Shown here one piece after another: positions 1,703 through 34,457 of a stretch of DNA of 64,000 nt. Every line of letters begins with the position of its first letter. Position 1 is the first letter of the stretch. The DNA is taken from contig OZ316893.1 in NCBI GenBank assembly GCA_973895155.1, forward strand, positions 8,022,963 to 8,086,962, read 5' to 3'. A program made the translations under genes and the position numbers. Source of the stretch: Marsupella aquatica. Lineage: Eukaryota > Plantae > Marchantiophyta. The notes below the pieces were generated by a model. It searched no databases. It had not been told where the DNA came from and was given only the letters and a program-made list of their open reading frames with translations.

Positions 1703-2032
1703 TGTTAAGGATTGCTCTTAGTCTTGTGACTCAAAGGTTACGGCACTTAGGCTAACCACAGTTAGGGTCTTAGCTGAGGTTAGGTTAGTCGTGTGTGACC
1801 TTGTATATGGGCTAGTGTAAGCCGCTGGTGAGTGGTGCTTGCTCATTTTGTAACGGAGCAACTTGAGGAAGAGGGAGAGCATGTGTGTTCGTTTACTCTT
1901 GAAGTAAAGCTTGAGTGTTCGTGTGGACGTAGCCTTGGAGAAGAGGTGAACCACGTAGAGATTGTGTCGACTACGTGTGCATGGAATAAGTCATGGTTGT
2001 ATGGTCGTTACGAATGACGTCTTAGTTCAACA
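1703..2032 (+). repeat. 5' LTR (330 bp)
   Basis: tgttaagg...ttcaaca; matches the 3' LTR except for two G/A transitions. Confidence 0.97.
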
Positions 2033-2034
2033 AT

Positions 2035-2046
2035 TGGTATCAGAGC
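2035..2046 (+). promoter_or_regulatory. Primer-binding site (tRNA-iMet)
   Basis: TGGTATCAGAGC 2 nt after the 5' LTR; canonical plant iMet PBS. Confidence 0.95.
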
Positions 2047-7800: not shown

Positions 7801-8052
7801 GGAAAAATGGCTCTTCATTGTGACAGCCAGAGTGCGCTTCACCTAGCTATTAACCAGGTGATGGATAGCAGGGTGAAGCACATTGACATCAGGTACCATT
7901 TTATTAGGCAAGCAGTGTCTGATAAAATGTTTAAGCTAGTCAAGATTGATGGAAAACTCAACCCGGCTGATGCTTTTACCAAAGTGATTCCTTTGGAGAG
8001 TTACTCAAGACACCGTGCTACTTTGCAGGTTTTGCATTTGCAGCACAAGTAG
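4825..8052 (+). CDS. pol: Copia Pol (protease-integrase-RT-RNaseH), same frame as gag, interrupted by TAG at 5260-5262
   Basis: WILDCACTYH (protease site, normally WILDSG); LWHCRLGH/CEHC; VHSDVWGP, LRSDNGGEY, PQQNGVCER (integrase); YKARLV, QMDVVTAFL, LYVDDML (RT); YVDSDYGG, TEAEY, KHIDIRYHF (RNaseH). Confidence 0.93.
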
Positions 8053-8245
8053 AGTAACTTAACAAGATGTGATTTCTGTATATGAGTTACTCAATCCTGT
8101 TATGGCTATGGCTTAATTCTAGTTAACTCTTAGTTAACCTTAAATGGTTTTTAGGGGGATACCTATGGTTTTAGGTGATTGTCTAGAATTTCCCGCTGAG
8201 TATCTCATATGGATAGCAGAAATTGCAGTCCCCAAGACTAGAGTC

Positions 8246-8254
8246 AAGGGGGAG
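8246..8254 (+). promoter_or_regulatory. Polypurine tract
   Basis: AAGGGGGAG 2 nt before the 3' LTR. Confidence 0.9.
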
Positions 8255-8256
8255 TT

Positions 8257-8586
8257 TGTTAAGGATTGCTCTTAGTCTTGTGACTCAAAGGTTACGGCAC
8301 TTAGGCTAACCACAGTTAGGGTCTTAGCTGAGGTTAGGTTAGTCGTGTGTGACCTTGTATATGGGCTAGTGTAAGCCGCTGGTGAGTGGTGCTTACTCAT
8401 TTTGTAACGGAGCAACTTGAGGAAGAGGGAGAGCATGTGTGTTCGTTTACTCTTGAAGTAAAGCTTGAGTGTTCGTGTGGACGTAGCCTTGGAGAAGAGG
8501 TGAACCACGTAGAGATTGTGTCGACTACGTGTGCATGGAATAAGTCATGGTTGTATGGTCGTTGCGAATGACGTCTTAGTTCAACA
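8257..8586 (+). repeat. 3' LTR (330 bp)
   Basis: Direct repeat of 1703-2032 followed by the TSD TTCCC. Confidence 0.97.
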
Positions 8587-11648: not shown

Positions 11649-12953
11649 CTAGTACCAAGGGATTTCCTTGCTGTTTGCTTTTGATGTAGAGCTTGTCCCA
11701 CTGTGTTTGCCTTTGGGGGAGGAAGTTGATCGACTAGTTTTTCCTTTTGTTGTTCTTTTCTTCCTCTTTTGTTGCCTTCCTCTCGCTGGAGTAGAAGCTT
11801 GATATGTTTTAATTACCTTCTTAGTACGCAATCTATTCTTTATAGAATCTCTTAAAACTCTTGCTTGTGGAAAAAATGAATCAATGAGGGACAAATTTCG
11901 TGGAGGCAGAGGCTCAAAAATTGGTTGAACATTTGGTTTCTCATTTGGAGGCATTGTTGAAAAATCAATTGTATTACTAGTTGAAGCAAGCTCTGAGTCT
12001 TGCTCTATGTGGCGGATATCTGCTGAGTCTTGAGTAAGAGAGTTTGATGAGGGGGGAATCTGAAAAATCTGTGCCGAAGCCGCATCAAAGGAGGTGTTGG
12101 ATATCAAATTGTAGTCAGAAAATGGTTGTAGAATTGGAGTACTACTCAGTACTCCTGAAGATGACCTTATAGTTTGGGAGATAGTGTGAGCTAAGTTTGA
12201 TGATGGAGCCGTTTGTGAGCTTGAAGGCTCTAAGTTCTCTGGGGAGCTCTCTGAAAATCCAGTAGGTTGGGTCCTAAGGATGGACTTTGAAGATCCTATA
12301 GAACTGTTGTTTTCTGAAGGATCCTCCATTATTGAGGAGAATTGTACAGACCTTTTAACTTGGTTGGTATGCTCATGCAGTGGAATCTGGTTGGCAAATA
12401 TACTTGCTCTATTGTATTTAGAGGGGCCAAGTTTTTTACAATCATCGGTAGTGAAAAGATCTTCTTGAATATTTGCCGCCATTTTATCTTTCTTTGTACT
12501 TTTATTGTCCATTCCAACATGTTGTTGGCTTAATCTTCTTAGAACCTGGCCAAGTGAATGCCAGTCTTCCATGGAAGATTCTTCCTTTTGCTGGTGGACA
12601 AGGTTTGTTTCTTCCATTTCAAACTGTTGAGTCTGGCTCAACCTTCTTAAAATTTTGCCCAAAGAATGCCAGTCTTGAGCTTCCACATTTTGAGTGCTTG
12701 GGTTGTCTTCTCCAATGGGCGTCTCATTAGTTCCTTCAGATGGATCTGTAATTGGCATTTGTTGACTTTTTGTAGGTGCTGTTTGGCTCTCCTCTACTTC
12801 CATGGAGATGAGGCCATCATCCTTAAAAGAGCTGCCAATTGAACTACTTCTAGATTGATAATTGCTGTCGGCATTTTCATGAGAAGAAGTCAAGTAGGCA
12901 CCATCAACTGAGAGTGAATCTTTCTCGCTTAAATCTGTGTTGTATGGCCAATC
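11649..12953 (-). CDS. Large Ser-rich low-complexity exon (putative last TMC exon, or part of a separate gene)
   Basis: 434-codon open frame after the acceptor ttttgccggtcag; duplicated DWHSLG(K/Q)(I/V)LRRLSQ motif; basic C-terminus. Confidence 0.65.
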   Translation of the reverse strand, partial: DWPYNTDLSEKDSLSVDGAYLTSSHENADSNYQSRSSSIGSSFKDDGLISMEVEESQTAPTKSQQMPITDPSEGTNETPIGEDNPSTQNVEAQDWHSLGKILRRLSQTQQFEMEETNLVHQQKEESSMEDWHSLGQVLRRLSQQHVGMDNKSTKKDKMAANIQEDLFTTDDCKKLGPSKYNRASIFANQIPLHEHTNQVKRSVQFSSIMEDPSENNSSIGSSKSILRTQPTGFSESSPENLEPSSSQTAPSSNLAHTISQTIRSSSGVLSSTPILQPFSDYNLISNTSFDAASAQIFQIPPSSNSLTQDSADIRHIEQDSELASTSNTIDFSTMPPNEKPNVQPIFEPLPPRNLSLIDSFFPQARVLRDSIKNRLRTKKVIKTYQASTPARGRQQKRKKRTTKGKTSRSTSSPKGKHSGTSSTSKANSKEIPWY

Positions 12954-15900
12954 CTGACCGGCAAAAGGAAGTGGAAACAATTTAATTTATCCAGCTTGAG
13001 GCTTGGTAAGGATCCTCTCTAAATTCCTTAATTTTCATGCTCGCTAGCATAGAACTTTGTTCTAGCATACAACACAAAACTTCAAGTGCAAGGTCCACTT
13101 ATGCTTAAAAAATGAAACAAAAACAAAAGATTTGACTCCTTAGTTTAAACTGAGTGTGAAAGACTTCTCTAAAACGAATGCAGTTGTCACAACATAGCTT
13201 ACTAGTGGAAATTTATGGATAAAAAATGATATAATTTTATCTCTGAGTATCATGATATATCAGCATTTGGTCAAAAGTAACTTGCATCCTAGATCTACCA
13301 TTTAAGCTTCCCTATCACCTAATACAATATGATGTGCATTCAAGAACTAAACTGCAATAGTATACTTGAAACAAGTTTTAAGCTGAGTTAACTTTAAATA
13401 TACCCCTACTTAAGTATCTATGTGATCTCTCAATGTAATGCAACTCACATGTGGCCCTGCAAAATGTTTAGATCTACAATCGACCTTCACCTTAAGGCTT
13501 ACAAGTCTACAACCTTGACACCTCCTTCCAAGAGATATACGCAACAAAAACCGTACATCAACCTGATTTTTGTTTCCCTCTTAATAAACAAGATTTTCCA
13601 CCTACTTTATCTTGCAAAAATCATCTAAGAAATAACAGCAGGTTTTAAAACATAAAATGGTCGTCTCAAAACATTCTATACAGTTTTCTTCTTTTAATTA
13701 AGTACCATGACGTCAAAAAGGTTACATACTTAGTAGGAAGCCTGGTTCCACTACACAGTCACAAAGAACTTCTTGCTTATGGTAAAGAGTTACAATAATT
13801 CTGCATGGTAGGAGAATTACAGGTGGCATTTGATCATCGGGACTTAGTGTTGGTTTTTGAAACCAATTCAGTTCAGTCAAGGCAGTAGCCAGCTGAGAGG
13901 AAGTTAGGCTTCCAGTAGTACTTTTGTACAAGGAAGTTTGCACACCCTACAAAAACAAATCAACAGCAAAACATAAATTACAAGGACAACAATATATACT
14001 AAAGTAGCCAAAAGATTAGCTACAAAGTTAGCAGTGTTTTTCACAATACTCTTCTAAATTGCACCAATTGAAACATCCCCACCACCACAACAAAACGAAC
14101 AAAATGCTTGCTTCCCTTGTCCGATACTTGGAAACTCCATATTCACCTTAAATACTTGAATAGCATCATATCAAAGATTGACTCATTACCCCCGCCAATA
14201 ATATATTAAAGAGTCTCCAATTGGCACCATAATTACCTTTATATCTGGTTAAATATAGCCAGTGTAGGCAGACAGGTTGAGTATATCTAACGTTGTCAAA
14301 GTAAAGTTTAAGGTTTCTCATTTGTTAATGCTAACTGCAATTCTTGGGTGTTAGATAGAATTTCTTTGTTAGTACATGATAACCTATCTGTCAAAATTTT
14401 TATAATTCTTACACCAAGCAGAAGCCCAGGTAGAAGCCTACTATTGACCAGAACTAATTTCGTTGAGTATTTTCAAAGAGAAACTACAACTTATGGCTTG
14501 ATCCAAGCATCAGCTATAATTCACATGATCGTATACATCAGCTATGATTCACATGATGGATTTTGTTGTAAGCAATGGTACTAATTGGCCACAAATATGT
14601 TTCTTTTCTATGTGGTCATTTTTTCTTTGGTCATAGTACACATTGTAATAGTAAATCTTTCCTCAAGTGTTGATGGAGATGGAATTTCCTATCTGACTAG
14701 TGTGGTGCTTGTATAGTAATTTTTGAAGTTGCTAATATGGTGAATGCACATTTCAGATTTTGTCTTATTCAGATTTTTGTGTCATGTATTTTTATTTCAT
14801 CTGCCTTATCAAGGGGCAGCCTTTGTATTCTATACATTTTTAATTAATTTTTAGAGCCCTTTAGTTTTAGGTATTCTAGGGTGCTTTGAATTTATTTTGG
14901 CAGCCCGCTTTCACAGTATGTGTTTTCTTAGAGATAAAACCGAAGGCTCCACCACCAAGAGTGAGAGAAATGATGCTAAAGAACATGAATAGATAGCCTC
15001 TTAAGTTCTCCTCATGTTTTTCTTTCATAGGTTTATGGTTTTTATTGAAAGGAGTGTCATTCATAAGGCACCCTGAGTTAAATGCACACATCGTAGCATC
15101 GTTTGACTGTACCTTTTCTTGGTCACTGTGCTTTTCTTGGCAGACACTTTATTTATATAACAGCACTTCTATGTTCTCATTATTTATATAATAGCACTTC
15201 TATGTTCTCATATTTTATTTATTTTCAGATCATTACAAGACAAAAAAATAAAACATGTGCCAGGATGAGCATGCTATGTTTGCACTGTTATTGCTTCACT
15301 ATCCATAAGCTATAGAATGAGAAACGTGTAAATGTCTAACAAGGAACTCAATCATGCAGGAAAGGTTGCATGCAAGTTGAAGAAGTAAGTAGTTGACCAT
15401 TCAATATAAGGTGAATCTTGGACTGTTGTTATCTCCAGCGTTGGTCAATAAAGGAACCATAAATAGGAAAATATATAAGTCCACTGTAATAAGTGAATGT
15501 GCTTCAGAGAAGATCATCGTGTTTTAAGACCAGCAAGTAAGTCCTGCAATTTTAAAAACTAAATATGTCATCCTCAACAATAGTTGGCTGAAAATCAAAA
15601 TTGGCTATAAACAAAAGGTGCTAGAAATAAGAATTCTACAAGAACCATGACTAATATTCTTGTTTCCTAATAGAGGTAGAAAGACGTATACTATCAAATT
15701 GGGAAGGCTTGGCTAGCACCCTGTATTTGTGATTACTTAGAGTAATTGTTCTCAAAAATATAGAGCAATGTGGAGGATGATCATGAGCACAACTTCAATA
15801 GGAGATCTTCACAAGTTTCTTCACCTAAATATCCTTACCCAGGTAATACTTTTTAATCAAATATAGCAAAATTTTGAAAATCATTAGATAAATCCATGTG

Positions 15901-18900
15901 TTTCAGAAAAACTTAGTGACAGTCTGGGGTATGAGATCTCCATACATAACTATGCTTTGACTTTGTATGCCATAAGATGTAAGCTATGTTTACATCTTCT
16001 TGATAGATATTTGGATGGATACAAAACACATTGGCTGGTATTTTACACTCCATAGATAGACAGTGAAAATTTTATGTTAACCTTCAAACATGGTCTCAAA
16101 TTTTGTAAGCCACTACCAAAATAATAAGGATGTTTTAACAACACTCATATATGTCAAGGTTTTGACATATGTATCATAACTTGTTCTATCTTCTTTGGGA
16201 GACTGTACCGAGATTGTTTTGCATTATGTACTTTTCTTGGTACATGTTTCTTGTTTAATGTTGTTGTTTAATGCCTGGTTGGGCGGCTTTGGTCCCCTCT
16301 TATGTTTTGGGCTCCGGCCTCCCCTTTTTGGGAGAAAAACAGTAAGGAAACTATTTTGACTTATTCATTCTCTCCCTGCCTCCTCTTTATAGAGTCCTTC
16401 CCTGGAATTTGGACCTTGGACCTCAAGTTTGTCACTGGAAGTTAGGGTTTAGGGTTGTACGTTACCAAAGGACTATGAGATTTGATGAGGGTATAAAGGT
16501 GAAATTACGTTAACTAGAGATAGCGGTTACTTTTATTTAAAGGGAAAATGAGTGAAACCCTACAGAAAGGGATGCAACAGAAATTGGTTATAACATTTGA
16601 AGCCAAGATTGGTGAGTCCCTACTCAAGTGAGATACCACTTAGCTATGTCTGCTTTGTCTAAGATAGTTGTTACTTTGACATGCAAGGCCTATCACTTTC
16701 TTGGAATAGCCAAGGACTTTTATAATTTATGTTGTTTCCAAAAGCTATAATTAGTCATTTTGATATAGTAAGATTCCCTACCATCAGCACTCCCTCCACT
16801 TTTGCCCTCTAGTAATATTCTCTAGTCTTAAAATAAACTTAAAAAATTGCACCTCAAGATAAGAAAAAATGTCAGTTAATATATATACATATATATTCTT
16901 CTAAATGAGAATCTGTAGCGGGGGGAAAACACTCAAAAGGATAGTACATACACCTTTTTTCATACCTCCTCCTCAATATAATTACTTTCTTCTTTTGGGT
17001 ACATACAATATAGTACATAAAGACTTTTTACAACCTTAGCGAGAACAGCATATACTCACATATTACTTCTTAGGAGGTATGTCATCATAAGCAACAAAAT
17101 TATGTTAATCAATACGAATAAATGCTTTGCATTCAAAACAAAGTTTTTAAGAAATACTTTTTGTTCCACTTAATTTACTTTTCAAGGGTAGAGATTTTAC
17201 AACCATTTTGCATTATCTAAACTTCATCTTTCTTATAGCTTCAAGCTTAGAAATGCCTGTTATCTAATTAAGTGATTCATATCCAATCAACTAGTTAGTG
17301 AAACAGATGTAGTAAATGAAATGGGTTAGAGAAGGTCAGAAGCTAAAGATATTACCTCTCTCATCCGTTTAAGTTTCTCAATAGATTCTTTCCTTTGTGA
17401 TCCCATTTCAAATTTGGTAAGAGCCAAAAATTGTCTGGTTTCAATAAGTTGAGATTGCACCAAGACAACAATGAAAATCAAGAAAAAAATAACCCCTAGC
17501 AATACTGCAGGGTTGAGGATCCAAGTAAATGCCAGCCATAATGATGATGGTGCTTTCTGCATAATTTGTCCCACCAAAATATTTTAAAAGTTAGCCAGTA
17601 AACATATAGCTTTCTTCAAGAGTACAAGTTCTGCCTATTATAGCTTTGAAACTTTGTTGGAAAAACATGAATGGTTTCTCTATAGCCAAATATTTTTGTC
17701 AAAAATAAATATGATTGACTTCTTTCTTCTTATATAGCAATGAAATTCTAAATAGTAACTCAAGGTCTTACATCCATGCTTGGATGAAAAAATAGAATTT
17801 TTTAAATTTACTATGGGGATGACTTTGAAGATTATATTGCAACTATTTTGGCACACAGAAAGCCTGAAGCCATTGGAAAAAAACCATCGCCTCATTTTTG
17901 CCTGGTGTTTCATTTAGCTGTCTGAAAATGTTATAAATGAGTGTGCATGGTCTATCAACAATCGACATGTCATCAAAAAACAAACTAAAGTTACTTGTTG
18001 GTGCAATATATTTGATAACTTAAAAATTTTTATTGAACAATGACCAATATTAATTTAAAATTATCACAAGCTAGTTATAATCTAAAATAGACTCTCAATT
18101 CAACCTTTGAAGTTTGGATAAAATTTGCTCTTTTCAATATGGAGTTAACTATTTGTGACGTTATAAATAAAAGTCCATGTTTAGATTCCACAAAAGTTTA
18201 GAAAATCATATCCTGCTTGAATATTTGGATTGAGATTCCATCAGAGATTATACATTTCAAAGGGATATTTATTATTATAGATACCAGCACAAAATAGTCT
18301 TCCCATGTTTACGTTTATAGAAAATTCAATGACATGGGCAGTTTTAGACATGGTTATATGATTAGTCAAAGTTAGAGCAACTTACACTTAAAATCTCAGT
18401 GCATGCAAAGACTCCAATAAAAATGCAAAATGATTCAACCTATAAAATTTGGATCATGGGTAATTAAGTGGCAATTATATTTTTGGTAATGAATAACTAT
18501 ATCTAGTAACAAAATAATGACTGAAAACCAGGTAGTCTGTTTGAAACATACCTGCATATATCCACCAATAATATCATACATTGAACTTTGAGTGTAAATA
18601 GGCCCACAAAACCCATCTTTTTTCTCCATTACAAGTATGGAGACAGGAATAGTGGAAAGAATAAGTGTAAACAAGAGTACACCATAAGTAAGAGTTGATG
18701 TTCGAGATGCACTGAAAGCCTTTTCAACTGGGGCACATGTCTTGAATAGGGCAATCTGCATTCCCAACAAGGAGCTAAAGTTTGTGTTGTAACACAATTT
18801 GTTTGTGACAATCCAAAAGACCCTACTAAAGGAAGAACAAAAAATGAATCAATAAAGTGAGTACTTTAGAAGAAGCAAAAGTAATAAAAATATTCCAGAA

Positions 18901-21900
18901 GATCCCAACAATCTTATTGGTGAGACTGTGAATTATTAAAAACATTAATATTTTAGGAGAAGAGGTTTTTATTAACTAACTTCATCCAAAATATTAGAAG
19001 AGTGGGATCATTGGAGAGTAAAAAACAAGAGTATATTGTTTAAGGAGGTAAAATACTGGAGACTGAGGAGCAACGTAAGATCAACTAAGATCAATTCAAG
19101 AAAATTACAGAATTACATAGACAGAGAAATAGACAAAGCGGATGCGTTAAGAGGGTATACATTGTGATCATCATTTTTTTTTATAATGCCAAAATATTTA
19201 TATAAATTATTATTTTTCATATTTAAATGAGCAAACAGTTATGATTATACCTTCATTGTATAGAACGTAAAGAAATTGGAAAGGAACCCAAGAACAGGAG
19301 CCATGGGACTAAAACAAACTCCCCACCAAACAAGGGCTTGCACATACACAACATCCATTGCCATATCTTCTATAAGCAACTGTCTTTTATTCTGCTTACA
19401 AATATCCACAACAACCAAAAAATTTGAATTAATAATCAAAACAAGCATATGAAAAAATGAATTGTTTAATTCAGGCAAAAATACTGAGTCTTGAACTGAT
19501 CACTACCTTTAGCAAAATAGACTCAAATATGGTATTGTAAATCACTAAGACATTAGAGCGCTGACATCATACCAATACTTGTATTGCAAGGAATGGAGAT
19601 GGTAGAGACCCCATGATAAAAGATGAGATAACCATATCCGTACGCCAGTTCAAATATAGCTCTTGATACAGATGAAATAACTACTAGGCGCAAAATTTGA
19701 CCTCCCACATAGTTCTCAGCACAGGTCGGGACACATAAACGCATCTGCAAAATTCATCATAACTTGAACATCATGGTTAAGTTAAAAACCCATGTGAGCT
19801 CAAACCCAATACCTCATTGAATTTTGCTTTAAAGAATTGTGGTTCAAGCTGAATTTAGTTTGGGGCATGCATGCTCAGTTTAGGGTTGTTATGTGTTGTT
19901 CATTGGTGCCGTAGATTTTCATTCTTAAACTGCTGACTTTTCATTTTGGCTTTGGGCTTGGGCCAAAGCCAAAGACCTGAGTTGCCTAATAGCAGGAATA
20001 GGTGTGATGATAGCCATTTAATGTGAATGAGCTAATCCTGGTTAGTTGTCTTAACACACAAACAAAACAAAGGCATTGTGATCTAGGAAAAAATCAAGGG
20101 TGAGGTACTTATTATCTCAAAAAAGAGTAACATTGTAGAAAATCCCAGAACATCTTATGTTATAATCTTTCATGATAACTTACACGGAAGAAAGTTTGTG
20201 GGACCACATCTCTTGTTGCCAATGCAAACCAAAAAAATGTGAAATAAGCTCGGAAATAAGGTGAGCATTTTTAAGCAAAAGAAAGGTTGGTTATAAACCC
20301 AACCATATTGTCAAAATTACACCAAGCTCCTAGTGCTAAGGAGGTATTTGCTTGATAGACCCCCAAAATGAAACTTATTACTTGATCAACCCCCTGAGGT
20401 CTATCAACAGTCCAGATCTGAGATCTAATGGTCCATCAACAGTCCAGATTGGCCAAAAGCATGGAGGGGGTTGATTAAGCAAACTTTTTCAAGAAGGGGG
20501 TCTGCTAAGCATATCTCTCTAGTGCTAACCTTTAGAAACTGCTAAGAAAAGTTTATTATTATTTGTGGTATCTCAGTATCAAACATACTGACATTATAAT
20601 TATCTGAAAATTTTATATTAACCTGAAGTATGACATTGAGAGTCTCCAAGGAGGATCCATGTTCGGGAAACTATCCAAAGCGTGTCTAGATTTAAGATAC
20701 AACTTCAGCATTGCACCTTGTTACTCATCAGATTTATTCTCTACATAGCTTGGACCACACGCTAAGATTTACTGCATGAATTGCCATAACGTTACTGCAT
20801 ATATTGTTATGAAAAATTACTAAAGTGTCTTTATTTGGAAAGTAATGCCTGGATGGACTGAGGGGTTTTCTGTGAAGCACCCATGGATTTGCAAACGGGT
20901 TTGCAAAGCTGACTCAGAACATCAAATCTGCTCGGATAACACTCTTTACAGTTTTGACTAATATGTAGACTACTCAGGGCGTCCTTCATTAAAAGCGAAG
21001 CGTCTTTCCCAAACTACGTGGTAAGTTGGTGCTCGTGCCCAAATACTAAGGGCGTTCTTCACAAAAGCAAAGCATCCATTGGCAATTAGTTTATAATATT
21101 TGACCAACTTTGCACTCATCGGCAATGGACCAATTGGTTTCAGAAAAAATGGAAACTTTGTCAGGTAACAGATTGGACATCAGAGAACATGCTGGAATTT
21201 TGAGCTGAAATAGAAATCCAATTTCTTATATAAATGCACAAGTTAACTGAAATCAGCATTTCACAGTTGGTGGAGACACCTGGAAAAACTACTAGGGGAG
21301 TCCTTCTCAAAAGCGAAGCATCCTTCTTAAGATAGCCCAACAATGAGATTTTGGGTGTAAAATGAAACAGTGTGTCACAGTCCATGGGGATGGGCAAAAC
21401 AAACCCCTTGGTCCATCCGAGCATAACTTCACTTATTTGACTTTTATTATTGAAATGCCAAGGGTTTTTTCAAGATCAAGGCCAAAAACTGTTTCTCTTG
21501 TTGATGGCTAAGATCAATCCATGCATTTTTATAATTCAAACAAAAACCATGGCATTTAGTAACTTTTCATAAAAGTATCTGGGAACTATGAAAATTTCTC
21601 AATACAATTTTAACCGGTTCCTATTATGGAGTAAAATATGTCAATAATCCTTCCGTACGAAATGCAAATCGGTCATTTAAAATTGACAATAAAATTCTTC
21701 TAGAATATTCTTCTTATAAAATTATGTTTGGGTCTCACATTATGTTCCAAATACTCCACTAACAAACTTAACCCCCCAAGTTGAAAACTGTTTCAGTCTA
21801 TCTTGGAGGAGTCTATGTTGGAGCCTATTCAAGCGCTTGCTGTATTAATAAGAAAACTCTCAAAAGAACTTGACCTGTTGAGCAGGTGTACACTCTTAAG

Positions 21901-24900: not shown

Positions 24901-27900
24901 GCCTCAAGTAGCCTCAAGTACATAGCTGCCTGCGCCTGCTACCTGGCCCTTTACATTTTCTTAGAGTTTTAAAGAGCATGAATGTCCCTCACTTTTGGGT
25001 GGGTGAATTTTAAGAGGAAAAACGGGCCAATGCAGGATTCAAACCCAGGACCTCTTGCACCCCACTCAACGCAGCTACCACTCAGCCTGTGGGTTCATCG
25101 CAACAAATTCTCACGCCTGGTATTTAACCAAAAACACATTTCCTGCAGACGTGGGCAGCGGGCAGCACTTACGGGGAAATTAATGAGCATTCAAGATTGC
25201 CTTCATGCTTAATCCAATGGGCATGGTCATAGAGACACAAGAACAGTCACATGTTTGGACTTTCCTAAATGCACCTCTAACCTGTGCTGACATGAATTGA
25301 TGCAGCATGGGCCCGCTCTTTTTCCTCTTCAGAAGAGCATCAGCATACAACTCCTTCAATTGCATCCGAACACCTCTTCGTAACTTAGCTGCAGCCTGTG
25401 GCATGAAAGCTACTAATTAAAAATTTTCGTTGTTACGTGTTGAAGGTCGCATTCGGAGGAGAAAACCTTTTCTCTGAGCTGCTCAACTCAGTTGAGCCTG
25501 CGGCCTCCGATCAACCGTGAAAACCGTTGAAAACAAAGTGGCGGACGGGCGAGTAATATGTGGGAATCTGCCAAACAGTTTGGGACCCTGTTTGCCTTTG
25601 GAAAACTGTCATGGTAACTACAAGTAGAAACAAATCTGAATCCCATAACTAAAGACCAGTATCATGATCAATCTGTGATATACAGGTTGGATAGAACAAA
25701 CTTATGGAACACAGATCATTGTCTTGTTCATGATGCATTGTCCTAAATAGAAGATATCTAGAACTAGAGCTAGAAGGGAGTTTCCAAGATGATCAACGGA
25801 AGGTAAATGGACCCTTTTAGAGTAGGATTTTATAGCTAATTTTGCTTTTAAAAATTGATTGGTAGTATTATCTGAGTCATTTCATCATGATTGTTGACTA
25901 TATTATGGTCGTTTCTCTTGTTAATAACATAATGGTGAAGACATCATGCAATTTGGTTTTAAGTCCTGTGGATAGATATTGTTTTCATTTAGAATGGGTC
26001 ACATAACCCATATGCTTTTAGACATCTCCAACCCAATGGGGGTTTTGCTTAGTGAGTATGTTAAATACCAATGCAGTTTTGTTCACATTAAGTAGCTATC
26101 ATGGCCAGCTGAAAAGCAGCCCACCCTGACAGGATGATTTCCTTAAATAGTAGGTATCCGCAGCTGAATTCACTAGCGAGAACTCAAGTTCTGTTCCCAC
26201 CACAAGTTTTTACCCTCAAAAGGGTTCTTGTGCCCTGATGGCCAGAAGTTTTGACCTTCGAGATACAACTCAAGGCACATTGTGCAGCAATTAGACTTTG
26301 CCTATATATGGACAGATAATGTTTTTTTTGTAGTACTCTATAAATCATCATCCTCATCCCTTTTTACATACTTGGCCCTCAGGAAATTTTGTCGGGGCTT
26401 CGGGGCCCAGGTTCCCACTGATCAGTTCAAGTGACAACCCCAGATTGAAATCTAGAAATCACGGCAACAAACCTAGTAGAGGGTCAACTATTATATATCA
26501 ATCTTTTCCAGATACAAATACACAAAACCCCGTTCCTGAAAACCCAATAACCTTTTAGTGAGTGGGTTGGACATAACTTTTTGGATTTTCTTTACTAAGT
26601 TTGGTCAACAACCCATTACAGTAACAAAACCAAGGAGGGTTGGAGATACGCTTAGTCCACACCTCTGTGAATTGAGTTAAGTGCTCCCCCAAAATTAAAA
26701 AGGATAAAGTAACTCTTCGGATACTATTTGGTTTATTTTGTTCAATCGTTTTTCAAGATATTGGATCTCACTTCAAGGGATGTGATGTGGAAGTCCCATG
26801 ATGCAAATACGAGACTTGAAAAAGGAAAATAGTGAGCTGCCATGGCAATGTCACCGGCATTCATGATTCGTCTTGCTATTCTGCATATCCATTTTGGAAA
26901 TACTTTAGATTATCTTGTAATAGGGCAATGTTGAAATTCTTTTCACTTGTTATCACTCGTGTGGAAACAAAATAAGCTAAATTATGTTTTTGCTAGTCTG
27001 CAAAAGAAAATAAAACAATCAATATTATATAAGCATATTTCCTTCTGCAGTTTATGTGGTATTTTTGAGGGGTTTCAGGTTTGAGCTTCAAGCAAGTCAA
27101 GGCTAAGTAGCAACATTTCAAACCAGCTCATAAATGTAGTAGCTCAAACACAACACTGAAGATTGCTAACGAATCATCCTTGCAAGATTTCAATTGGCCA
27201 ATTTTTTCATACATTCTCAGCATATTGATTCAGTTCTTTCAATACTGAATTGGAGTATTATAGATTAAACATTACTAAATAGTTATGCCCTAGGTTGTAT
27301 TTTTGTATGTTTTAGGTTGTAACTTGAATAAAGAGACCATTTAAAAACTGATAGCATCAAAACACGTTATGTAAAACAATTTCTTTCTAAAATAAGGGTA
27401 TTTAAACAGGGCCTAACTTGTGCGAAGGCTTCAAAAAATACATTCAAAAATCCCCTCCAATAGTTAGATTCTCCCATCATTTCAACAATAAGTGGCCAAC
27501 GATAATCGGGGAGCTTTTTATAGAGTACATAATAATTTGTAGCAATATAAACTCCAGATAGATACAAGACCAAGATTAAGATGTTTTTTTATCATTGACA
27601 TAGCGAGAAATCAAATTATTAAGGAATAAATATTATTGTTACCTCCCCAATATGCCAAGGAAACTAAGAAGAAATGTCGCACCAATAAGCAAAGGGTACA
27701 TGTAGTCTACTCTCCACAAGCCCTTTTGTTCATGAGAAGTATATGTATACCCTCCATAGAAAACAAAAGTCCTTTCCAAAGATTTACCCTGTGAAGGGAG
27801 GCAATTGGCAGGGGTTACCATGTATCAATATTCGATCTTTATTTACAAAATTTATCAACATTGATTGCAACTAACTACTGATATTAATAAACATAACTTT

Positions 27901-30900
27901 ACTAACCTGACCCCAAATTTATCAAACTGTATACCTACACCCCATGCTATTGTAAGCCACCTTGACTCCCATTCTGTGCGTGGGGCTAACTAAATGATGT
28001 AGTTACCCAAGGTCCTGCGTGATTGGTCTGGCGCCACATGGAGAGACACCATTGGTCCAGCCTTACATACCCTGGTTAAAATTTCCCCGAACAGGGCCGC
28101 CTCTTTCCCATAGGAAACTTGGGAAGGAGAGGCTCTTGTCGCAAGCTCCTGTCGCCCAATCTAGCTGTAGTCCCTGTCTATTCATTCCACCCCCCAGTTT
28201 ACTTGGAAAAAGCCAGCTGGTGTTGCTACATTCAGGACCCAATGATAGAGCGGGCAGGGGCTTGGTGCAGCAACAGTCACCCACAATCTGCAGTAGGCGA
28301 GAATGCATGTGAGTGTGGGAGGGCAGGCAATGTTTGCGATGGGGGAAGGGCTGTCCTGGTTTAGGGAAACTTTTTGTGGGGTAGGGTGAGACCAATTGCG
28401 CCTTGCAATGTGATGCTAGACCAATTACCAGGGACCTTGGGTTACCACATAATCTTTAAGTCATACATAGGCCCCCTTAAAGAAAGAAGAAAAATCTAAA
28501 TAAGGCATATCTCAAAATATATTGTGTAGAGTGACTTTAAGGATTCAATGGGCCTAGTGTAAATGCGCTCCAAAATAACCTACTTCTAAGATATTATTTT
28601 TTAGATCATCTCAGTTACTGTAGGGCTTTGCAAGCAACATCTGGTACTAACTCAAGTCTAGGTTTTCACAGGCCACATATTCACACAAAGTCTTTCTCCA
28701 TCCAATTATGCAAGAAAAACTGCAAATTATCTTGGGGCACTGCACCACTTTACCACATCTTTGCATAATCTATATAATTACGTAGAAATTTTTGGGGAAC
28801 TTCATGCATACCTTGAAGTATGCTTTATTGCTGTGACTATGTTGAGAACCTAAAACTATCCACATAATTAAGATTTTGAATGGAAATGTTGTTATATCAT
28901 ACCATAATTAGTTTTTTAATTTACCTAGTACAACACTTGTCCACTTTCTTGTAAAGATAGAAATCCTTAAACCTGTAGTTTTATCCAAACTAGTCATTAA
29001 GGAATTGTGTATAGAATGCATATTGCAGCCTCAGTCTCTTGACCTTGTAATTCCTTTCTCCAATTGTTATAGCCCGACCAAAAACCAGGTAATTGTGGAA
29101 GACATGTGGCATTTCCTTGTTGTTTAAATATTAAGGATATTACAGTCCAAATATGATAATTATAGCACAGACATGTTATTATTTCTCAATGCCTCATGAA
29201 TGCCCTGGGGCAGAATTTTCCAAGAAAGTTAGTCATGCAAGGATGGCCTGAAATAATTTGCATTTGAATCAAGTTGGCCAAACTTTCCAAGGTTAGTGAT
29301 GTATTACAAGTAAAAAACTTCTGTTCAGAAAGTGAAGTGTGTGAAAAGAGTGCTCTAAATGTGAGTCAGAACAGAATTTGGCCAATGAATATTATTCAAG
29401 AATAAAAGACCATTGTAAGCAAATGGAAGTAACATTGAGGTTTCTTGTAGGAAGAATTGCGAACCTGTATGACATCCCTTATTCCACTGGCAGTGCCAAA
29501 GGTTGTTTTCAAGGCACGCCAGTGAAAAGACTTGGGTGGACGTACTAAAAATGGAAGAATCATGAGAGCCAGCCACACACTAGCAAGAACAAAATTGAGT
29601 AGAAGGACCCAACGGATGAAGGAAAACGCAAGCATCATCGAAGATCCGTAGTCACCTTCCATTTTCTTCAATGACTCATTCCATAACTTTAGATGATTTA
29701 GGCCCTACATATAAAATCATTGGTGTTTAGAGGGTTGCTATGGTCCTATATTGTCACTCTCAAATTTAAGCCAGTGCCGCATAATTGACAGCTCTCAAAT
29801 GGAATTTATTGCAAGTCTATTCAAGTTGATTCAAAGCTAGCGTTGGCTAGCTGGAACTACATAAATATGCCAAACTACTAACACCATAACTAGTTCATTG
29901 AAATTACTCTAACTAGTCTTGTTAAAGTTTTCTAGATTGATTGATATATGAACATAATAGCACAATCAAATATTTGCCACAAATAACACGCATATTTTTA
30001 AGAACCACAATGATGGTGTTTGTCTTTGTAATTGGACCCTAATTAAATGTGTAGTTTAAATTGATGCTTCTGGTCTAGATAATTATATGCAAGTCAGTGA
30101 GGTGAGAGGTTTCTAGCTGACTGCCATGATCAAGTGAAATGGGGGAAGCTTTAAAGTTATGGTTCTTGGTCCAAATAAGCAATACATTTTTAATAATCTT
30201 GTGAGATGAGATATCCACTTTGCTGAAGACAACCTGAGCCACCAACTTGAAAAATAGGAGGTTTCCCCAAATCATACATGCTACAAAATGAAATTGTAGA
30301 ATAGCAGTTGGAGGAATTGATCACCTTGCCCCTTAATCGTTTTTGCTCTCTTTCAAACACCCATCTCCGAAATCTACCCCAAACGCCTTTTGAAATATCT
30401 CTCTTTCTTCGAACTGTCTGAACTGAAAGCGATGATAGTCGATCCCTTGCTTTTTGAACAGTACTGAATACCTGCTCCCCAGGGTCATTTTCTTGTATAG
30501 CTCATATTATGTTATAGCAAGAGGGCTCAATCAGAAAAAGTTCAAACAGCTTCAAGCTACTATTAGTCAAATATAGTGGTATAGCAGAAGACGTAAGATT
30601 GTGCATAGCATGTACCTAGAGAAGGGAAGGCATTGTAGCAATAGTGGATTTACTTCAGGGAAGGGAGATTACAGTGCATAGTATAGGTAGTGTTTAGCTG
30701 TGGATATGGTACTGGGACAACAATGATGTTCCAATAGCACCATCCTAAGATCACGCACTAGAGTGTGGGATGCAGATAAATAATGCACTAGAAAAGCTGC
30801 AAACACTATCACCACAGCACATTTAAACATTTAATGAGATTTCATCTGTCCAGTATGGACAATGTTGGATGTCAGGGGTTTCTTTTTGTAGTGGAACCAA

Positions 30901-33900
30901 CTGGTAATTATTTAGTAAAACTATTCTGTAGTGATGTGATTATATGATACGAAAGTAGTCTATGTAAGAATATTTCAACTTAGAAGCTCCTCTTAGGATA
31001 GACCATATAATTTGACTCTCACAACTCTGATTGACCCATCACTTTCAAAGAATGGGAAATGTAGGTATATGAACGGGAAAAGATGCTATCTGCGTAGAAA
31101 ATGTTTCAGAGTGGTCCATGCAAAGCTACAATAAACCATTCTAGCATCTTGTCACACTTCATGGTCTAAAACAAAATCCTTTATGGTCTATGAGAGCATC
31201 AGTTTCATCAACTTATGGTAATTCTGGAAGTTATTTTACAATCCCAAACCTTTGCTAAAATTTATTGCTCTTAAAGAGAAAACTGCCTAGGGCAAGCTGT
31301 GCAACTAGCTTGCAGGCAGGGAAAACTTCTCCTTCATGTTCTTGTATTTTTATTTTTCTATACAATTGCTACCACAAGCTCATTAGATACTTTTATTCAT
31401 TCATTGAAATTCATTTCAAAAGATCTGTACTTACGGACCCCACTAGAGGTCCCTTCCAAAATTCCTGGCACCAAAGCGTGCCACGTCAACAACAACCGCA
31501 ACAAACAAGACTCGTCGGTTTTGTGAATCAAACTTATAGTTTTCATTTGTGTTTGTGTCAATTTGGGTGTAAATTTTGGGACGCCATACTGTAAAAAGAA
31601 AAATAAAAACATTGGAAATGCAAAGAGCAAGACAGTTAAAACTATCACTATGTAACCATTTTAGTTACATTTCCAATTTTAAAACTTAAATTCAAAGATT
31701 TATAAAAAGTATTTTTCATATAATAAATAATGACTAATAAGTAACTTGATAGCTTCCTTGTTAAACCGCAACTCCCGGTATGTTAGGACCTATCTTATTG
31801 TACGGCCATTAATGCTGGGAAGAGCACAGAGAAACCTAAGATCGGGGAGAAGGAATGGCTGGAATCTTGAAAGTTCATCTAATTTTATACTCAAAACTAT
31901 TTACTCATTCTCAAAACAAAAAATACCCAGTCGTAGATCTCATTGAGATCTTTCTTTTGCACCCTAGATCGCCTTCTAACATGGATGAATAAGATTTCTA
32001 GAGGTATTACAAAATGGACGACAAAGATAGTAAAATCAACAAAATCGACGGCTAGGAGGGCTTGGATTTGTTTAATTTTTCATTTGAAAAATATTAACCC
32101 ATTTGCAAAACGGACAGAACTCATCCATAGATCTATTTGAGATCTTTCTTTTGAGCCATAGATTGGCCATTATGATGGACGGACGAGATTTCCGGAGATA
32201 AGAAATGGAGACGGCTCAGATCGACTTTTCCCCCTGATTTTATTAACCAAGGGGTCCACGAACTAATTTAGAGTCAACCTCCAGAACAAGAAGTGGCCTT
32301 CTAGTTTGTTTTGGTGAAAAAGTATTATCTAATTCAGAATAATCATAACTATGAATAATCACATTATCTAATTCACAATATTATGATTATTTTTTGTATT
32401 TATAAAAATATCACTATTTTTTATATTGATGACAAGTTTACCAAGATAAACGAAATAGCTACATTATAATATTTTTGTAAATATGAAAAATAGTGACAAT
32501 ATTATAAATTCAAACATCCTTAATGTATCTTCTGTTATGTAAATCCTTTGCTTGTAAATTGTTCGTGCTTTCGTACAAAGGATTGGCGGTTTGTGAGAGA
32601 AGTTAAGAGGCTTGCCTGTGTGCGCCTTTCGACGAGAGCTTTACTTGCCGGGGAGGAGGGGTCTCCGCTGAGCTTATGGCGATGCTGCGCCGCAGCAGCA
32701 GTGCGCTTCTGCAGGAACTCCGCCATGCCCAGCTCCTCCGTCACCGGCACCACCAGGGTAGCGCTCGTGCCCTCGAACTGGAAGTCTGCAGCTCCGGCAG
32801 GAACCGGCGCTAAGGATCCTCGAGTCGACATGAACGGAAACGGCGAGGTTGCCACGAACGAAAGCAATCTCGAGCTTAACGATGCTCTCGCTGGTGCTGG
32901 TGCGGGTGCTTCATCCGGGACTGTTTCTCCCACCACTTCTGATCCGTCACTGGGAGAAGGAGTAGTAGCTGCTGGATTTGGGTCAGGCTGTGCCCACAAC
33001 GATGACCTTCGGGACGTCTGGAGTTTTGGATCAGCAGAGGATGAGACATTTGCTGGAGCTGGGTCAGGCTGAGTCCACAACGATGACCTTCGGGATGACT
33101 GAGGTTTTGGATCAGCTGAGGATGAGACATCTGCTGGATTAGGGTCAGGCTGTGCCCACCACGATGATCTTCGGGGTGACTGAAGTTTTGGGTCAGCGGA
33201 GGATGAGGCCTTTGCTGGATTAGGGTCAGGCTGTGGCCACAACGATGAGCTTCGGGATGACTGAAGTTTTGGGTCAGCGGAGGATGAGGCCTTTGCTGGA
33301 TTAGGGTCAGGCTGTGGCCACAACGATGAGCTTCGGGATGACTGAAGTTTTGGGTCAGCTGAGGATGAGACATTGTCTGGATTAGGGTTAGGTTGTGGCA
33401 ACAGCGATGACCTTCGGGACGAGCTGACTAGTGGATAGTCAGAAGACGATGATGCTAATGAGGGCTTCCGGGACGAGGGATTAATTTCTGGGTAAGCAGG
33501 AGGGGGAGATGAGGATGATAACCTGGATGGCCTTCGGGACGAGCTGCTGAAATCTGGGTAAGTTGGAGGGGGAGATGCGGATGATAAGGACGACTTGCGG
33601 GACACACTGTCTCGGTATAAACGGAAAGATGGCGATGACGAGGATTGGTTTCGGGAGGAGCTGACATCTGGGGAAGCAGCTTCTGTTGGGGGTGTATCTT
33701 GTCCTTCGTCCTGTCCCTCCTTAACCATAACACACCACACAAGAGGAAACACATTGAAACAAATCACGGGCAGGATGGATTTTTAAGAAGATGTTCTATC
33801 GCGTTGAGGATTTGGAACAAATATGGAATTTATATCGATGGGGAGGTTTATGCCTGTTTCCCGTTCTCTACCTATTTTGTGCCCTACTTATGAGACGTGA

Positions 33901-34457
33901 AGATAACGTCTCATTCACAGTTCCTCTCCTCTCCTCTCCTCTCCTCTCAAAATGTTGGTAATGCAGAGCTCGGGGGGAAATTCTTGCCAAGCGAAATAGC
34001 TGCATTCAGAATTTCATCCTTTTCCCAAAAACAACATATTGAGAAGCCAATGCGAATCTTTCTTTAATTTTTTATGTTCAGGTAATTGAGTTTCTAAACT
34101 TAGCGAACCCCTGAACTCGGCATAACTTTCTTTTCCGTTGCCAACCTAAATTGGATTGACTGTCTGGACGGCTTGCGTTAAGAGAATTTTTTCGCTTATC
34201 TAGCGGGAAAGTTGACTTCGAAGTCACCTGATCACCTTCTAGTGTGTGGACGGATAAATTAATCAATTTCGACGTATTTTGAGTTTTCTCACCTCTTGCG
34301 GTTGCGTTGCTTCTGGAATAGTTCTTGGAGAAGACTCCGGCTTCAGGCTACTTTTTCGTGAGCTCCTTCGCCTTTCAGAGGAGACACTAGCTGTGGATGA
34401 GGTATCTTCTTTAGGATTCGGCGGAGGCGTTGAACTTGTCTCTCCTGAAACCAACAT
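11649..34457 (-). CDS. TMC: Transmembrane channel-like (TMC family) protein gene, ~17 exons, ~1590 aa if all exons join
   Basis: Phase-consistent GT-AG exons: 34457-34293, ~33719-32577, 31588-31435(?), ~30500-30325, 29704-29465, 27788-27643, 26880-26772, 25395-25282, 24751-24649, 23172-23004, 22384-22237, 19744-19610, 19391-19251, 18755-18552, 17556-17356, 13946-13821(?), 12953-11649(?). TMC motifs in the correct order: LWNESLKKMEGDYGSS..FIRWVLLLN, FYGGY, FSSLVFASWDF, CAENYVGGQILRL, VVYVQALVWWGVCFSPMAP, FSASRT, LSTIPV, CGPI. Confidence 0.88.
13821..13946 (-). CDS. Putative exon GVQTSLYK...DDQMPP
   Basis: tttttgtag acceptor, gtaatt donor, 126 nt, phase 0/0, bridges 17356 and 12953. Confidence 0.5.
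17356..17556 (-). CDS. TMC: TMC exon (TM10 and C-terminal helix)
   Basis: KAPSSLWLAFTWILNPAVLLGVIFFLIFIVVLVQ...EKLKRMRE; atgcag/gtaata boundaries. Confidence 0.85.
18552..18755 (-). CDS. TMC: TMC exon (TM9, CGP motif)
   Basis: IALFKTCAPVEKAFSASRTSTLTYGVLLFTLILSTIPV...FCGPIYTQSSMYDIIGGYMQ. Confidence 0.9.
19251..19391 (-). CDS. TMC: TMC exon (TMC domain, TM7-TM8)
   Basis: NKRQLLIEDMAMDVVYVQALVWWGVCFSPMAPVLGFLSNFFTFYTMK. Confidence 0.88.
19610..19744 (-). CDS. TMC: TMC exon (start of TMC domain, TM6)
   Basis: MRLCVPTCAENYVGGQILRLVVISSVSRAIFEL...; corresponds to CWETxVGQExxRL; the donor (gtctct) is weak. Confidence 0.85.
20340..20519. mobile_element. Mutator-like (MULE) MITE in a TMC intron
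   Basis: Perfect 9-bp TSD TAGTGCTAA (20331-20339 and 20520-20528); imperfect TIRs ggaggtatttgcttgatagaccccc / gggggtctgctaagcatatctctc. Confidence 0.8.
20838..21430. mobile_element. Degenerate MULE-like non-autonomous element
   Basis: ~50-bp imperfect TIRs (gaaagtaatgcctggatggactgaggggtt / aaccccttggtccatccgagcataacttc); near-match 9-bp flanks ctttatttg/acttatttg; internal repeats agggcgtccttc..aaaagcgaagc. Confidence 0.55.
22237..22384 (-). CDS. TMC: TMC exon encoding a Cys-rich loop
   Basis: tttgtcttag acceptor and gtaagt donor; it fixes the phase 2 to 0 gap between neighbouring exons; SIRVLTTTRALRAINGHQGSCFDKYCSEGLHCCDKAYPEWNICDNVDIQ. Confidence 0.75.
23004..23172 (-). CDS. TMC: TMC exon (TM4-TM5)
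   Basis: SDYAQAVLFGLLNNIGPVVVRILVDMENFKPATAERVVLTKLFFLRFLNLATFYS. Confidence 0.85.
24649..24751 (-). CDS. TMC: TMC exon (TM3)
   Basis: RFLALCILWPLTMVGVVLAVDGLSKNTDLINSYF; ttgcag/gtaaga boundaries. Confidence 0.8.
24873..25177 (-). mobile_element. Dispersed ~300-bp repeat (Helitron-like or SINE-like), copy 1
   Basis: Homologous to 49523-49830; internal tRNA-like A/B boxes (aggctgagtggtag, ggtttgaatcc); 3' palindrome gaggctcttaatgagcctc about 10 nt before CTCG|T. Confidence 0.55.
25282..25395 (-). CDS. TMC: TMC exon (intracellular loop 1)
   Basis: AAAKLRRGVRMQLKELYADALLKRKKSGPMLHQFMSAQ; ccacag/gttaga boundaries. Confidence 0.8.
25424..25587 (+). other. NUMT: fragment of plant mitochondrial small-subunit rRNA (rrn18) 5' domain
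   Basis: gttgaaaacaaagtggcggacgggcgagtaatatgtgggaatctgccaaacagtttggg resembles the plant mitochondrial rrn18 helix 6-7 region; GC-rich hairpin-forming insert upstream; the rest of the gene is absent. Confidence 0.75.
26021..26651. mobile_element. PIF/Harbinger (Tourist-like) MITE in a TMC intron
   Basis: TTA TSDs (26018-26020 and 26652-26654); TIRs gacatctccaaccc / gggttggagatacgc. Confidence 0.7.
26772..26880 (-). CDS. TMC: TMC exon with the conserved F..WDF motif
   Basis: IARRIMNAGDIAMAAHYFPFSSLVFASWDFHITSLE; atgcag/gtgaga boundaries; absent from the ORF track. Confidence 0.88.
27643..27788 (-). CDS. TMC: TMC exon (FYGxY loop, TM2)
   Basis: GKSLERTFVFYGGYTYTSHEQKGLWRVDYMYPLLIGATFLLSFLGILG. 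Confidence 0.88.
27997..28450. mobile_element. Fold-back/MITE with ~70-bp imperfect terminal inverted repeats
   Basis: atgtagttacccaaggtcctgcgtgattggtctggcgccacat versus atgtgatgctagaccaattaccagggaccttgggttaccacat. Confidence 0.6.
29465..29704 (-). CDS. TMC: TMC exon (pre-TM1 helices and TM1)
   Basis: GLNHLKLWNESLKKMEGDYGSSMMLAFSFIRWVLLLNFVLASVWLALMILP, the hallmark TMC W..LK.IE..FGSS...F.FLRW...LN segment. Confidence 0.92.
30325..30500 (-). CDS. TMC: TMC exon (basic N-terminal helix)
   Basis: VFSTVQKARDRLSSLSVQTVRRKRDISKGVWGRFRRWVFEREQKRLRGK followed by gtgatc; the acceptor position is uncertain (30500, 30491 or 30471). Confidence 0.7.
31435..31588 (-). CDS. Possible TMC exon
   Basis: Strong ttttctttttacag acceptor and gtaagt donor; open in a compatible frame (YGVPKFTPKLTQTQMK...). 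Confidence 0.5.
32577..33719 (-). CDS. Large Ser/Pro-rich N-terminal exon of the TMC gene with 27-aa tandem repeats
   Basis: 410-codon ORF, GC-rich coding composition, gtacga donor after RQSF. Confidence 0.8.
32966..33420 (-). repeat. Coding minisatellite, 81-bp unit x ~5.6
   Basis: tgaagttttgggtcagc recurs at 33181, 33262 and 33343; encodes SSSADPKLQSSR(R/S)SSLWxQPDPNPAxx. Confidence 0.95.
34293..34457 (-). CDS. Putative first coding exon of the TMC gene
   Basis: gccATG start, MLVSGETSSTPPPNPKEDTSS...RRRSSRKSSLK...QPQE followed by gtgaga, phase 0 matching exon 2; same S/P/R composition. Confidence 0.6.

Follow-up and report, generated by a model that had tools for sequence, protein, structure and literature searches.

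In mouse TMC1, two acidic residues of transmembrane helix 6 (TM6) are important for permeation: the D528N and E520Q substitutions each cost about 35% of the conductance and make the channel less permeable to Ca2+ (PMC9564823). In OSCA1.2, conductance is affected by E531, an acid of the pore that follows D523 at a distance of eight residues (PMC6235563). TMC genes have also been recorded in plants. Erives and Fritzsch reported a single Tmc gene in Coccomyxa, Klebsormidium, Marchantia, Physcomitrella and Selaginella and proposed that Tmc cannot coexist with rigid walls such as those of ferns and seed plants (PMC7003098); the terms "sperm" and "flagell" occur nowhere in that article. The Selaginella and Coccomyxa genes are named in PMC12806904, and Viridiplantae are listed among the TMC holders in PMC5868767. 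The present analysis concerns a TMC gene of the liverwort Marsupella aquatica, located on a 64,000-nucleotide stretch of contig OZ316893.1 (GCA_973895155.1), the window, in which all coordinates are given. The presence of TMC in non-seed plants is already published, so that the gene's existence is not new and should not be taken as a surprise, as it was in an earlier note on this DNA (compare PMC7003098 and PMC12806904). The locus carries an intact liverwort TMC gene that was inherited vertically and is orthologous to Marchantia Mp8g02240; its predicted product lacks the TM6 acids corresponding to D528 and E520 of mouse TMC1.

The TMC gene and its fold

Sixteen exons on the minus strand (34457-11649) were joined in phase to give a predicted model of 1518 codons that starts at 34457, contains no internal stop and ends in a single stop at 11651-11649. 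The model was built from the nearest database proteins and splice signals, and its junctions are predicted from these rather than read from transcripts. Exons 4 to 14 are the eleven core exons (29704-17356), which carry AG acceptors and GT donors and are flanked by three exons upstream and two downstream. When the window was searched with the Calypogeia fissa protein by tblastn, all eleven were matched with 68-94% identity and 54-130 bits; the reversed Calypogeia protein, used as a control, scored 26.9 bits at best, and the exon matches are far above chance. The earlier note had proposed a complete TMC gene with these bounds and core exons joined in phase, and both proposals were upheld; the TMC motifs that it listed were found on the minus strand in the order given.

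It is nearly certain that the gene belongs to the TMC family. The open stretch holding exon 12 alone matched the Pfam TMC domain (PF07810; TC 1.A.17.4) with 33.1 bits against a cut-off of 25, as the earlier note had anticipated, and the full-length domain was recognized in the 87%-identical Calypogeia protein with 49.1 bits. The spliced model matched a profile of 132 non-green TMC sequences with 383 bits (E 1e-118), amino acids (aa) 421-1044 being covered. The spliced core was 87% identical to the Calypogeia protein over 560 aa and 56% identical to Mp8g02240 over 662 columns. These two orthologs, of which the Calypogeia one is an unnamed TMC-domain protein, have the same TM6 charge pattern and long Ser-rich tails. 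A PDB sequence search with the Marchantia ortholog matched only C. elegans TMC-1 and TMC-2.

The fold was analyzed on a model of the Calypogeia core (126 sequences), not of the window's own spliced protein. The model had a predicted local distance difference test score (pLDDT) of 87.7 and a predicted template modeling score (pTM) of 0.88. Comparison with four TMC entries (PDB 7USW, 7USX, 7USY, 8TKP) gave Z scores of 37.9-39.0 and TM-scores of 0.67-0.71; the other structures listed had TM-scores of at most 0.47. The fold is the same as that of C. elegans TMC-1 and TMC-2 (Z about 39, root-mean-square deviation 3.4-4.2 A over 431-480 residues), and the earlier note's expectation of a likeness to C. 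elegans TMC-1 was confirmed on the Calypogeia model. The Z score did not exceed 28.2 for TMEM63 and was about 26 or less for OSCA and TMEM16, superfamily folds for which the ranges were 22-28 (AtOSCA1.2, TMEM63A/B) and 22-25 (nhTMEM16, mTMEM16A/F). A structure model of the Sphagnum protein agreed that the fold is nearer TMC than OSCA or TMEM16. In the Atlas of predicted structures, the nearest match was a TMC7 cluster (TM-score 0.80). A long TM10 helix is predicted in the Calypogeia model; in TMC channels, it is by swapped TM10 helices that the dimer forms. Hydropathy at a threshold of 1.4 recovered only 8 of the 10 expected helices, and the topology was therefore taken from the fold model.

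The landmarks FYGGY, W-D of intracellular loop 1, C-x-E, F-x-P, SR and CGP are common to the plant protein, C. elegans TMC-1 and TMC-2 and vertebrate TMC1/2. In addition, the intracellular loop 1 segment of the plant profile matched chain B of PDB 6WUD, a TMC1 peptide, with E 2.5e-4; we take this chain to be the CIB-bound peptide, the segment being the one to which CIB/CALM-1 binds in animals.

Two other identities were considered and rejected. The nine core-exon stretches and the orthologs gave no match to the Pfam domains RSN1_TM, PHM7_cyt and RSN1_7TM of OSCA/TMEM63, and the TM2-TM3 loop of the model is about 70 aa long, whereas OSCA/TMEM63 has a large cytosolic domain there. No Anoctamin Pfam match was found, the TM8 Ca2+ ligand positions of TMEM16 are non-acidic and the fold Z score is lower. 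Since the Pfam, profile, PDB and fold comparisons all favor TMC, the OSCA and anoctamin readings were discarded, in agreement with the earlier note.

Descent was examined with FastTree on 159 sequences, 15 of the 174 matched proteins having been dropped for covering fewer than 330 profile columns, and with IQ-TREE on 36 selected sequences. Both trees placed the model within the liverworts, inside a green clade whose order is that of plant phylogeny. In the IQ-TREE analysis, the model and the Calypogeia protein were sisters (support 100/100), and the liverworts (100/99), the land plants (97/97) and the sister position of Coleochaete (100/100) were recovered. The gene was therefore inherited and not acquired from animals, and its position points to a leafy liverwort or a near relative of one as the most probable host. 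In both trees the green clade lay outside all animal TMC subfamilies, including the clade with paddlefish TMC2, and the gene is not an ortholog of TMC1/2/3.

Acidic residues of TM6, TM7 and TM8

Residues were counted in 18 streptophyte and 132 non-green sequences; six other green sequences were kept apart and three near-copies were left out. Paddlefish TMC2 (P0054) served as the reference for the E520 and D528 positions, the mouse numbers being placed on it by what we take to be their spacing from the TM6 cysteine. Exon 11 (19610-19744, minus strand, aa 816-860), which has a weak donor, encodes TM6, and exon 12 (19251-19391, minus strand, aa 861-907) encodes TM7-TM8 and the Pfam TMC core. At the D528 position, an acid is present in 121 of the 132 non-green sequences and in none of the 18 streptophyte sequences, the model having S839. 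The E520 position is acidic in 85/132 non-green and again in 0/18 streptophyte sequences, and is Q831 in the model. The pattern is reversed at position 847, the inner TM6 acid, which is acidic in 18/18 streptophyte sequences (E847 in the model) and in 0/132 non-green ones. The TM7 aspartates D869 and D873 are each kept in 16/18 streptophyte sequences, and the TM7 Asn of animal TMCs is absent from the model. Because mouse TMC1 conducts less and passes less Ca2+ with D528N or E520Q, a low Ca2+ permeability is predicted for the plant protein. The label "animal mechanotransduction-type" given to the gene in the earlier note is too strong, since the two TM6 acids are absent.

The plant protein, which is about 19% identical to C. 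elegans TMC-1 and TMC-2 and vertebrate TMC1/2, is non-acidic or hydrophobic at the D528, E520 and TM7 Asn positions. In comparison with these proteins, its inner TM6 acid lies four residues earlier, the link between TM6 and TM7 is about 16 residues shorter, and the TM5-TM6 loop is short and Cys-rich. This loop (exon 10, 22237-22384, aa 766-815, defined by tblastn and alignment, and 19721-19744, all on the minus strand) contains seven cysteines and has low pLDDT. It is mostly common to other streptophytes and two trebouxiophytes and does not appear in the non-green sequences shown. The loop is possibly a small disulfide-bonded extracellular domain; a likeness to granulin was rejected (E 3.6).

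The inner acid was also compared with the other branches of the superfamily. The spacing from 839 to 847 equals that from D523 to E531 in OSCA1.2, and the inner TM6 acid would thus have a similar spacing in OSCA/TMEM63. Position 843 is Arg in the model and in Calypogeia and Asn in 12/18 streptophyte sequences, and N/R843-E847 resembles N448-E452 of nhTMEM16; the TM6 N-x-x-x-E and the TM7 acids may have a partial counterpart in TMEM16 (PMC5868767). In a register drawn from that article, only 847 and 873 of the six TMEM16-type Ca2+ ligand positions would be acidic. Unlike in TMEM16, the TM8 ligand positions 902 and 906 are acidic in 0/18 streptophyte sequences, and the residue at 870, where TMEM16 has its first TM7 ligand, is hydrophobic. 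A PDB profile search gave no usable alignment for the TM6-TM8 register against TMEM16 and OSCA.

Several points weigh against a simple interpretation of this pattern. The 18 streptophyte sequences come from 14 species and include alleles, isoforms and close kin and, because of this shared ancestry, do not represent 18 independent events. Gln occupies the E520 position in 30/132 non-green sequences, including several animal TMCs. Moreover, HMMER aligns the plant E847 to the inner TM6 acid of animals through a four-residue gap, and E847 may therefore be the animal residue moved by one turn rather than a new one. Finally, the equivalence of E847 to OSCA E531 or nhTMEM16 E452 is putative and based on spacing.

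Candidate functions

The reading favored here, with somewhat less than even confidence, is that this TMC-fold protein without the two outer TM6 acids is a low-Ca2+ cation leak channel or a lipid scramblase of vegetative gametophyte cells under stress. The gene structure, the family, the Calypogeia-core fold, the position in the tree, the residue pattern and the vegetative expression in Marchantia on which it is based are established. On this view, the TM4-TM7 groove of each subunit would serve as the path for ions or lipid head groups. Because Gln and Ser occur naturally at the E520 and D528 positions, respectively, the protein would conduct weakly and pass little Ca2+. E847, beside the TM7 aspartates D869 and D873, would draw cations in at the cytoplasmic side. 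An EF-hand protein bound to the conserved intracellular loop 1 might regulate the activity, as might phosphorylation within the long RRxS/T-rich tails, and no tip-link tether would be involved.

Expression data were available for the Marchantia ortholog. Among the rows listed in supplement file 11 of PMC9946954, Mp8g02240.1 was called up-regulated in darkness, cold plus darkness, heat, and heat plus darkness in 15-day gemma-grown plants. In thalli without visible gametangiophores, Mp8g02240 had a mean log counts per million (logCPM) of 1.0-1.3 (PMC13190419). In a line of the same study, radial spoke protein 3 (log fold change, logFC, 3.27) and DUO1 (logFC 2.03) were four- to tenfold up, whereas the Mp8g02240 isoforms had logFC values of 0.0003 and 0.52 with false discovery rates of 1.0 and 0.65. 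The per-genotype logCPM columns of PMC13190419 were not used because they conflict with the logFC of a control gene. These results count against a sperm-only gene, and the sperm link is unproven.

Three considerations count against the proposed leak channel or scramblase. The expression data come from Marchantia, whose protein is 56% identical, the level is low, and antheridia lie outside both tables. The streptophyte distribution and the PKA-type motifs fit a role in sperm equally well. In addition, no functional study of any plant TMC was found in the literature, subscription journals and unread supplements lying outside the search, and the earlier note's description of the gene as uncharacterized in plants holds within that scope.

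A rather unlikely alternative is that plant TMC has its main role in spermatids or flagellated sperm, where it might be an ion pathway under the control of the CAPE-cAMP-PKA module, and that it was lost with swimming sperm. The named streptophyte holders are liverworts, Sphagnum, lycophytes, ferns, Coleochaete and Mesostigma, which are lineages with flagellated cells. The streptophyte TMC profile is the same as that reported for CAPE, and PKA regulatory subunits are expressed in antheridia of Marchantia (PMC11032487). Mouse TMC7 is testis-specific and required for acrosome formation (PMC11398861). The non-motile Chloropicon primus retains nearly all flagellar genes (PMC6731263), and for this reason a divergent match in Chloropicon roscoffensis is no counter-example; that match (P0176) is itself doubtful as a TMC member, since it stands on a long branch and was not recognized by Pfam TMC at E 0.1.

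The tails of the protein also bear on this alternative. Both are long and of low complexity. In exon 2, an 81-bp tandem repeat is present in 5.6 copies (32970-33427, minus strand), and several of its 27-aa units contain RRxS. In exon 16, a 14-aa basic amphipathic motif ending in RRLS is duplicated (12525-12674, minus strand), as it is in Calypogeia. The tails of the model do not align with those of Marchantia, where the N-terminal 27-aa repeat was not seen. In the tails of five liverwort proteins, S/T stands three places on from 21 of 23 RR pairs, which would fit regulation by PKA; at six other offsets S/T was found 3-13 times in 23, against a background of 21-30%. The RRxS/T counts are, however, inflated by repeats and orthologs, and other basophilic kinases share the motif. 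It is sparse outside liverworts, being absent from the three moss and Selaginella sequences checked and occurring at most once, in the core, in other vascular-plant sequences. No enrichment of the L-x-R-x-x-S motif (CDPK/SnRK2-type) was detected in the tails.

The Marchantia tables stand against the sperm role: both isoforms were flat where radial spoke protein 3 and DUO1 rose (PMC13190419), and the gene was induced by heat and darkness in vegetative plants (PMC9946954). The PMC13190419 tissue was early thallus, and late sperm genes might for this reason not yet respond. Non-motile holders of TMC exist, such as Coccomyxa. Capsaspora and Fonticula are non-flagellated. Both hold TMC (PMC7003098). 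The available sperm expression supplements of PMC12849711 (6 files), PMC11923412 and PMC6290024 (older gene identifiers, guessed) contained no match to Mp8g02240, and the accessible parts of a Cycas paper and a preprint held nothing usable on TMC. Of the sperm link suggested in the earlier note, the distribution and the RRxS/T tails fit; vegetative expression and the lack of co-induction with sperm genes in the Marchantia tables do not.

It is quite unlikely that the protein is a force-gated, Ca2+-permeable channel that serves the plasma membrane as a sensor of touch or turgor in the way of hair-cell TMC1/2. The fold is closest to the C. elegans TMC complexes, loop 1 is conserved, and the related OSCA/TMEM63 proteins are tension-gated (PMC6235563). 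On the other hand, the protein has neither the D528 and E520 acids nor the TM7 Asn, and the nearest Atlas structure is the TMC7 cluster, not TMC1/2. The hair-cell channel has TMIE, CIB2/3 and LHFPL5 as partners; TMIE, LHFPL5 and the tip-link cadherins are, to our knowledge, animal proteins, which also counts against a force sensor. Mp8g02240 responded to heat and darkness among the PMC9946954 rows listed, mannitol and salt being outside that listing.

It is distinctly improbable, though conceivable, that streptophyte TMCs form a distinct subtype in which the outer TM6 acids have been lost and the inner TM6 acid and the two TM7 aspartates make a partial TMEM16-like cation site, and that in liverworts the protein is a membrane target of the CAPE-cAMP-PKA module of sperm through its RRxS-rich tails. 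If true, the protein would be the ion pathway still missing for swimming plant sperm, which seed plants lost together with flagella, and its single-copy gene would give genetic access to the roles of TMC before hearing.

An intracellular role in Golgi or secretory pH and ion balance has a precedent in mouse TMC7 (PMC11398861), and the Atlas match to the TMC7 cluster and the loss of the outer-neck acids would agree with it. Because the green clade lies outside all animal subfamilies, however, the plant TMC is no TMC7 ortholog, and this role is highly improbable. A pseudogene, assembly artifact or animal contamination, to which one GC donor, one weak donor and the long low-complexity tails might point, is scarcely credible given a frame open over 16 exons, an identity to Calypogeia of 87% in the core but 39% in the tail exon, five core-exon allelic variants (40 of 773 rows listed) of which three are silent and two exchange Ile and Val, a tree that follows plant phylogeny and DNA contigs of one sequencing run identical to the window over pieces of up to 5.4 kb.

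Exons, surroundings and distribution

All exons lie on the minus strand. Exon 1 (34293-34457, aa 1-55) is Ser/Pro-rich, with an ATG and a GT donor and without clear homology. Exon 2 (32616-33719, aa 56-423) encodes a disordered Ser/Pro tail followed by the first conserved helix, its 3' end aligning to Marchantia and Riccia. Exon 3 (30325-30471, aa 424-472), which encodes basic pre-TM1 helices, was matched by tblastn with Marchantia at 50% identity. Tblastn and the splice model define exon 4 (29465-29704, aa 473-552; pre-TM1 helix and TM1), exon 5 (27643-27788, aa 553-600; FYGGY loop and TM2), exons 6 (26772-26880, aa 601-637) and 7 (25282-25395, aa 638-675) with the first half (F..WDF), the segment matching 6WUD chain B, and second half of intracellular loop 1, exon 8 (24649-24751, aa 676-709; TM3), exon 9 (23004-23172, aa 710-765; TM4 and TM5), exon 13 (18552-18755, aa 908-975; FSASR, TM9 and CGP) and, together with the fold model, exon 14 (17356-17556, aa 976-1042; TM10 and a long helical extension). 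Exon 15 (13821-13946, aa 1043-1084) is 82% identical to Calypogeia over 39 aa, and exon 16 (11649-12953, aa 1085-1518 and the stop), the low-complexity C-terminal tail, is 39% identical over 419 columns. The Calypogeia record (P0001) has its first residues in the pre-TM1 helix, so that its first exons are probably missing, and the Riccia and M. paleacea records lack parts of TM1-TM2.

Fourteen of the 15 introns have GT-AG borders. The remaining one, intron 2, is GC-AG, and its GC donor (32614-32615) is backed by the alignment of Marchantia and Riccia. This donor and the unusually weak GT donor of intron 11 (19602-19609) are candidate sites of alternative splicing. The model is least secure in exon 1, at the splice acceptor before exon 2 and at the splice donor after exon 15. 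In a comparison of allelic DNA contigs (40 of 43 differences listed), exon 1 (165 bases) carried none, intron 1 (573 bases) 26, exon 2 nine and the region upstream of exon 1 five, a pattern that lends exon 1 weak support. No exon-exon joints were present among the listed rows of four contig runs, the contigs of which cover introns. Several introns contain high-copy repeats of the same genome. Short ones at about 14735-15277, 20341-20519 and 22548-22680 have a summed contig depth hundreds of times that of single-copy DNA and are probably similar to miniature inverted-repeat transposable elements.

Elsewhere in the window, a long terminal repeat retrotransposon was found at 1703-8586 (plus strand), of copia type by its order of open reading frames (ORFs), as read by eye. 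Its terminal repeats (330 bp) are 99.4% alike, which suggests that it is young, and its polyprotein frame has two in-frame stops (4822-4824 and 5260-5262). A single-exon, Lys/Glu-rich ORF of 679 aa (36439-38478, minus strand) shares the strand of the TMC gene, from which it lies 2 kb upstream, and gave no Pfam match and no usable Atlas match. An ORF at 41512-42051 (minus strand) contains a heavy-metal-associated domain (Pfam HMA, 36.4 bits). A cytochrome P450 gene with at least two long exons (55160-57418, plus strand) is a candidate cinnamate 4-hydroxylase, CYP73A.

The matches extended the known distribution of plant TMC. Each of two Adiantum ferns has two paralogs (P0157/P0009 and P0010/P0011), the only plant duplication seen, which differs from the single copy of published surveys. 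Copies were also found in Diphasiastrum, Sphagnum, Riccia, Coleochaete, Mesostigma and Myrmecia. These and the Adiantum paralogs are new with respect to PMC7003098, PMC12806904 and PMC5868767; the supplements of PMC12806904 gave no TMC match. No seed-plant TMC was present among 30 matches looked up by name (14 nameless) or in another set of 13 matches, and no nameless sequence branched beside the ferns in the 36-sequence IQ-TREE analysis. The absence from seed plants is weak evidence because Physcomitrium and Klebsormidium, reported TMC holders, were also missing by name. The fern copies count against the published cell-wall explanation as written: the loss of plant TMC is thereby moved to seed plants or later, and that explanation is weakened.

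For the study of TMC beyond animal sense organs, liverworts provide a gene reported as single-copy in a haploid, easily edited plant, and from the D528 and E520 acids that are naturally missing, a direct prediction about permeation follows. The interest of the gene lies in this testable pore pattern and in the fern result, not in its existence.

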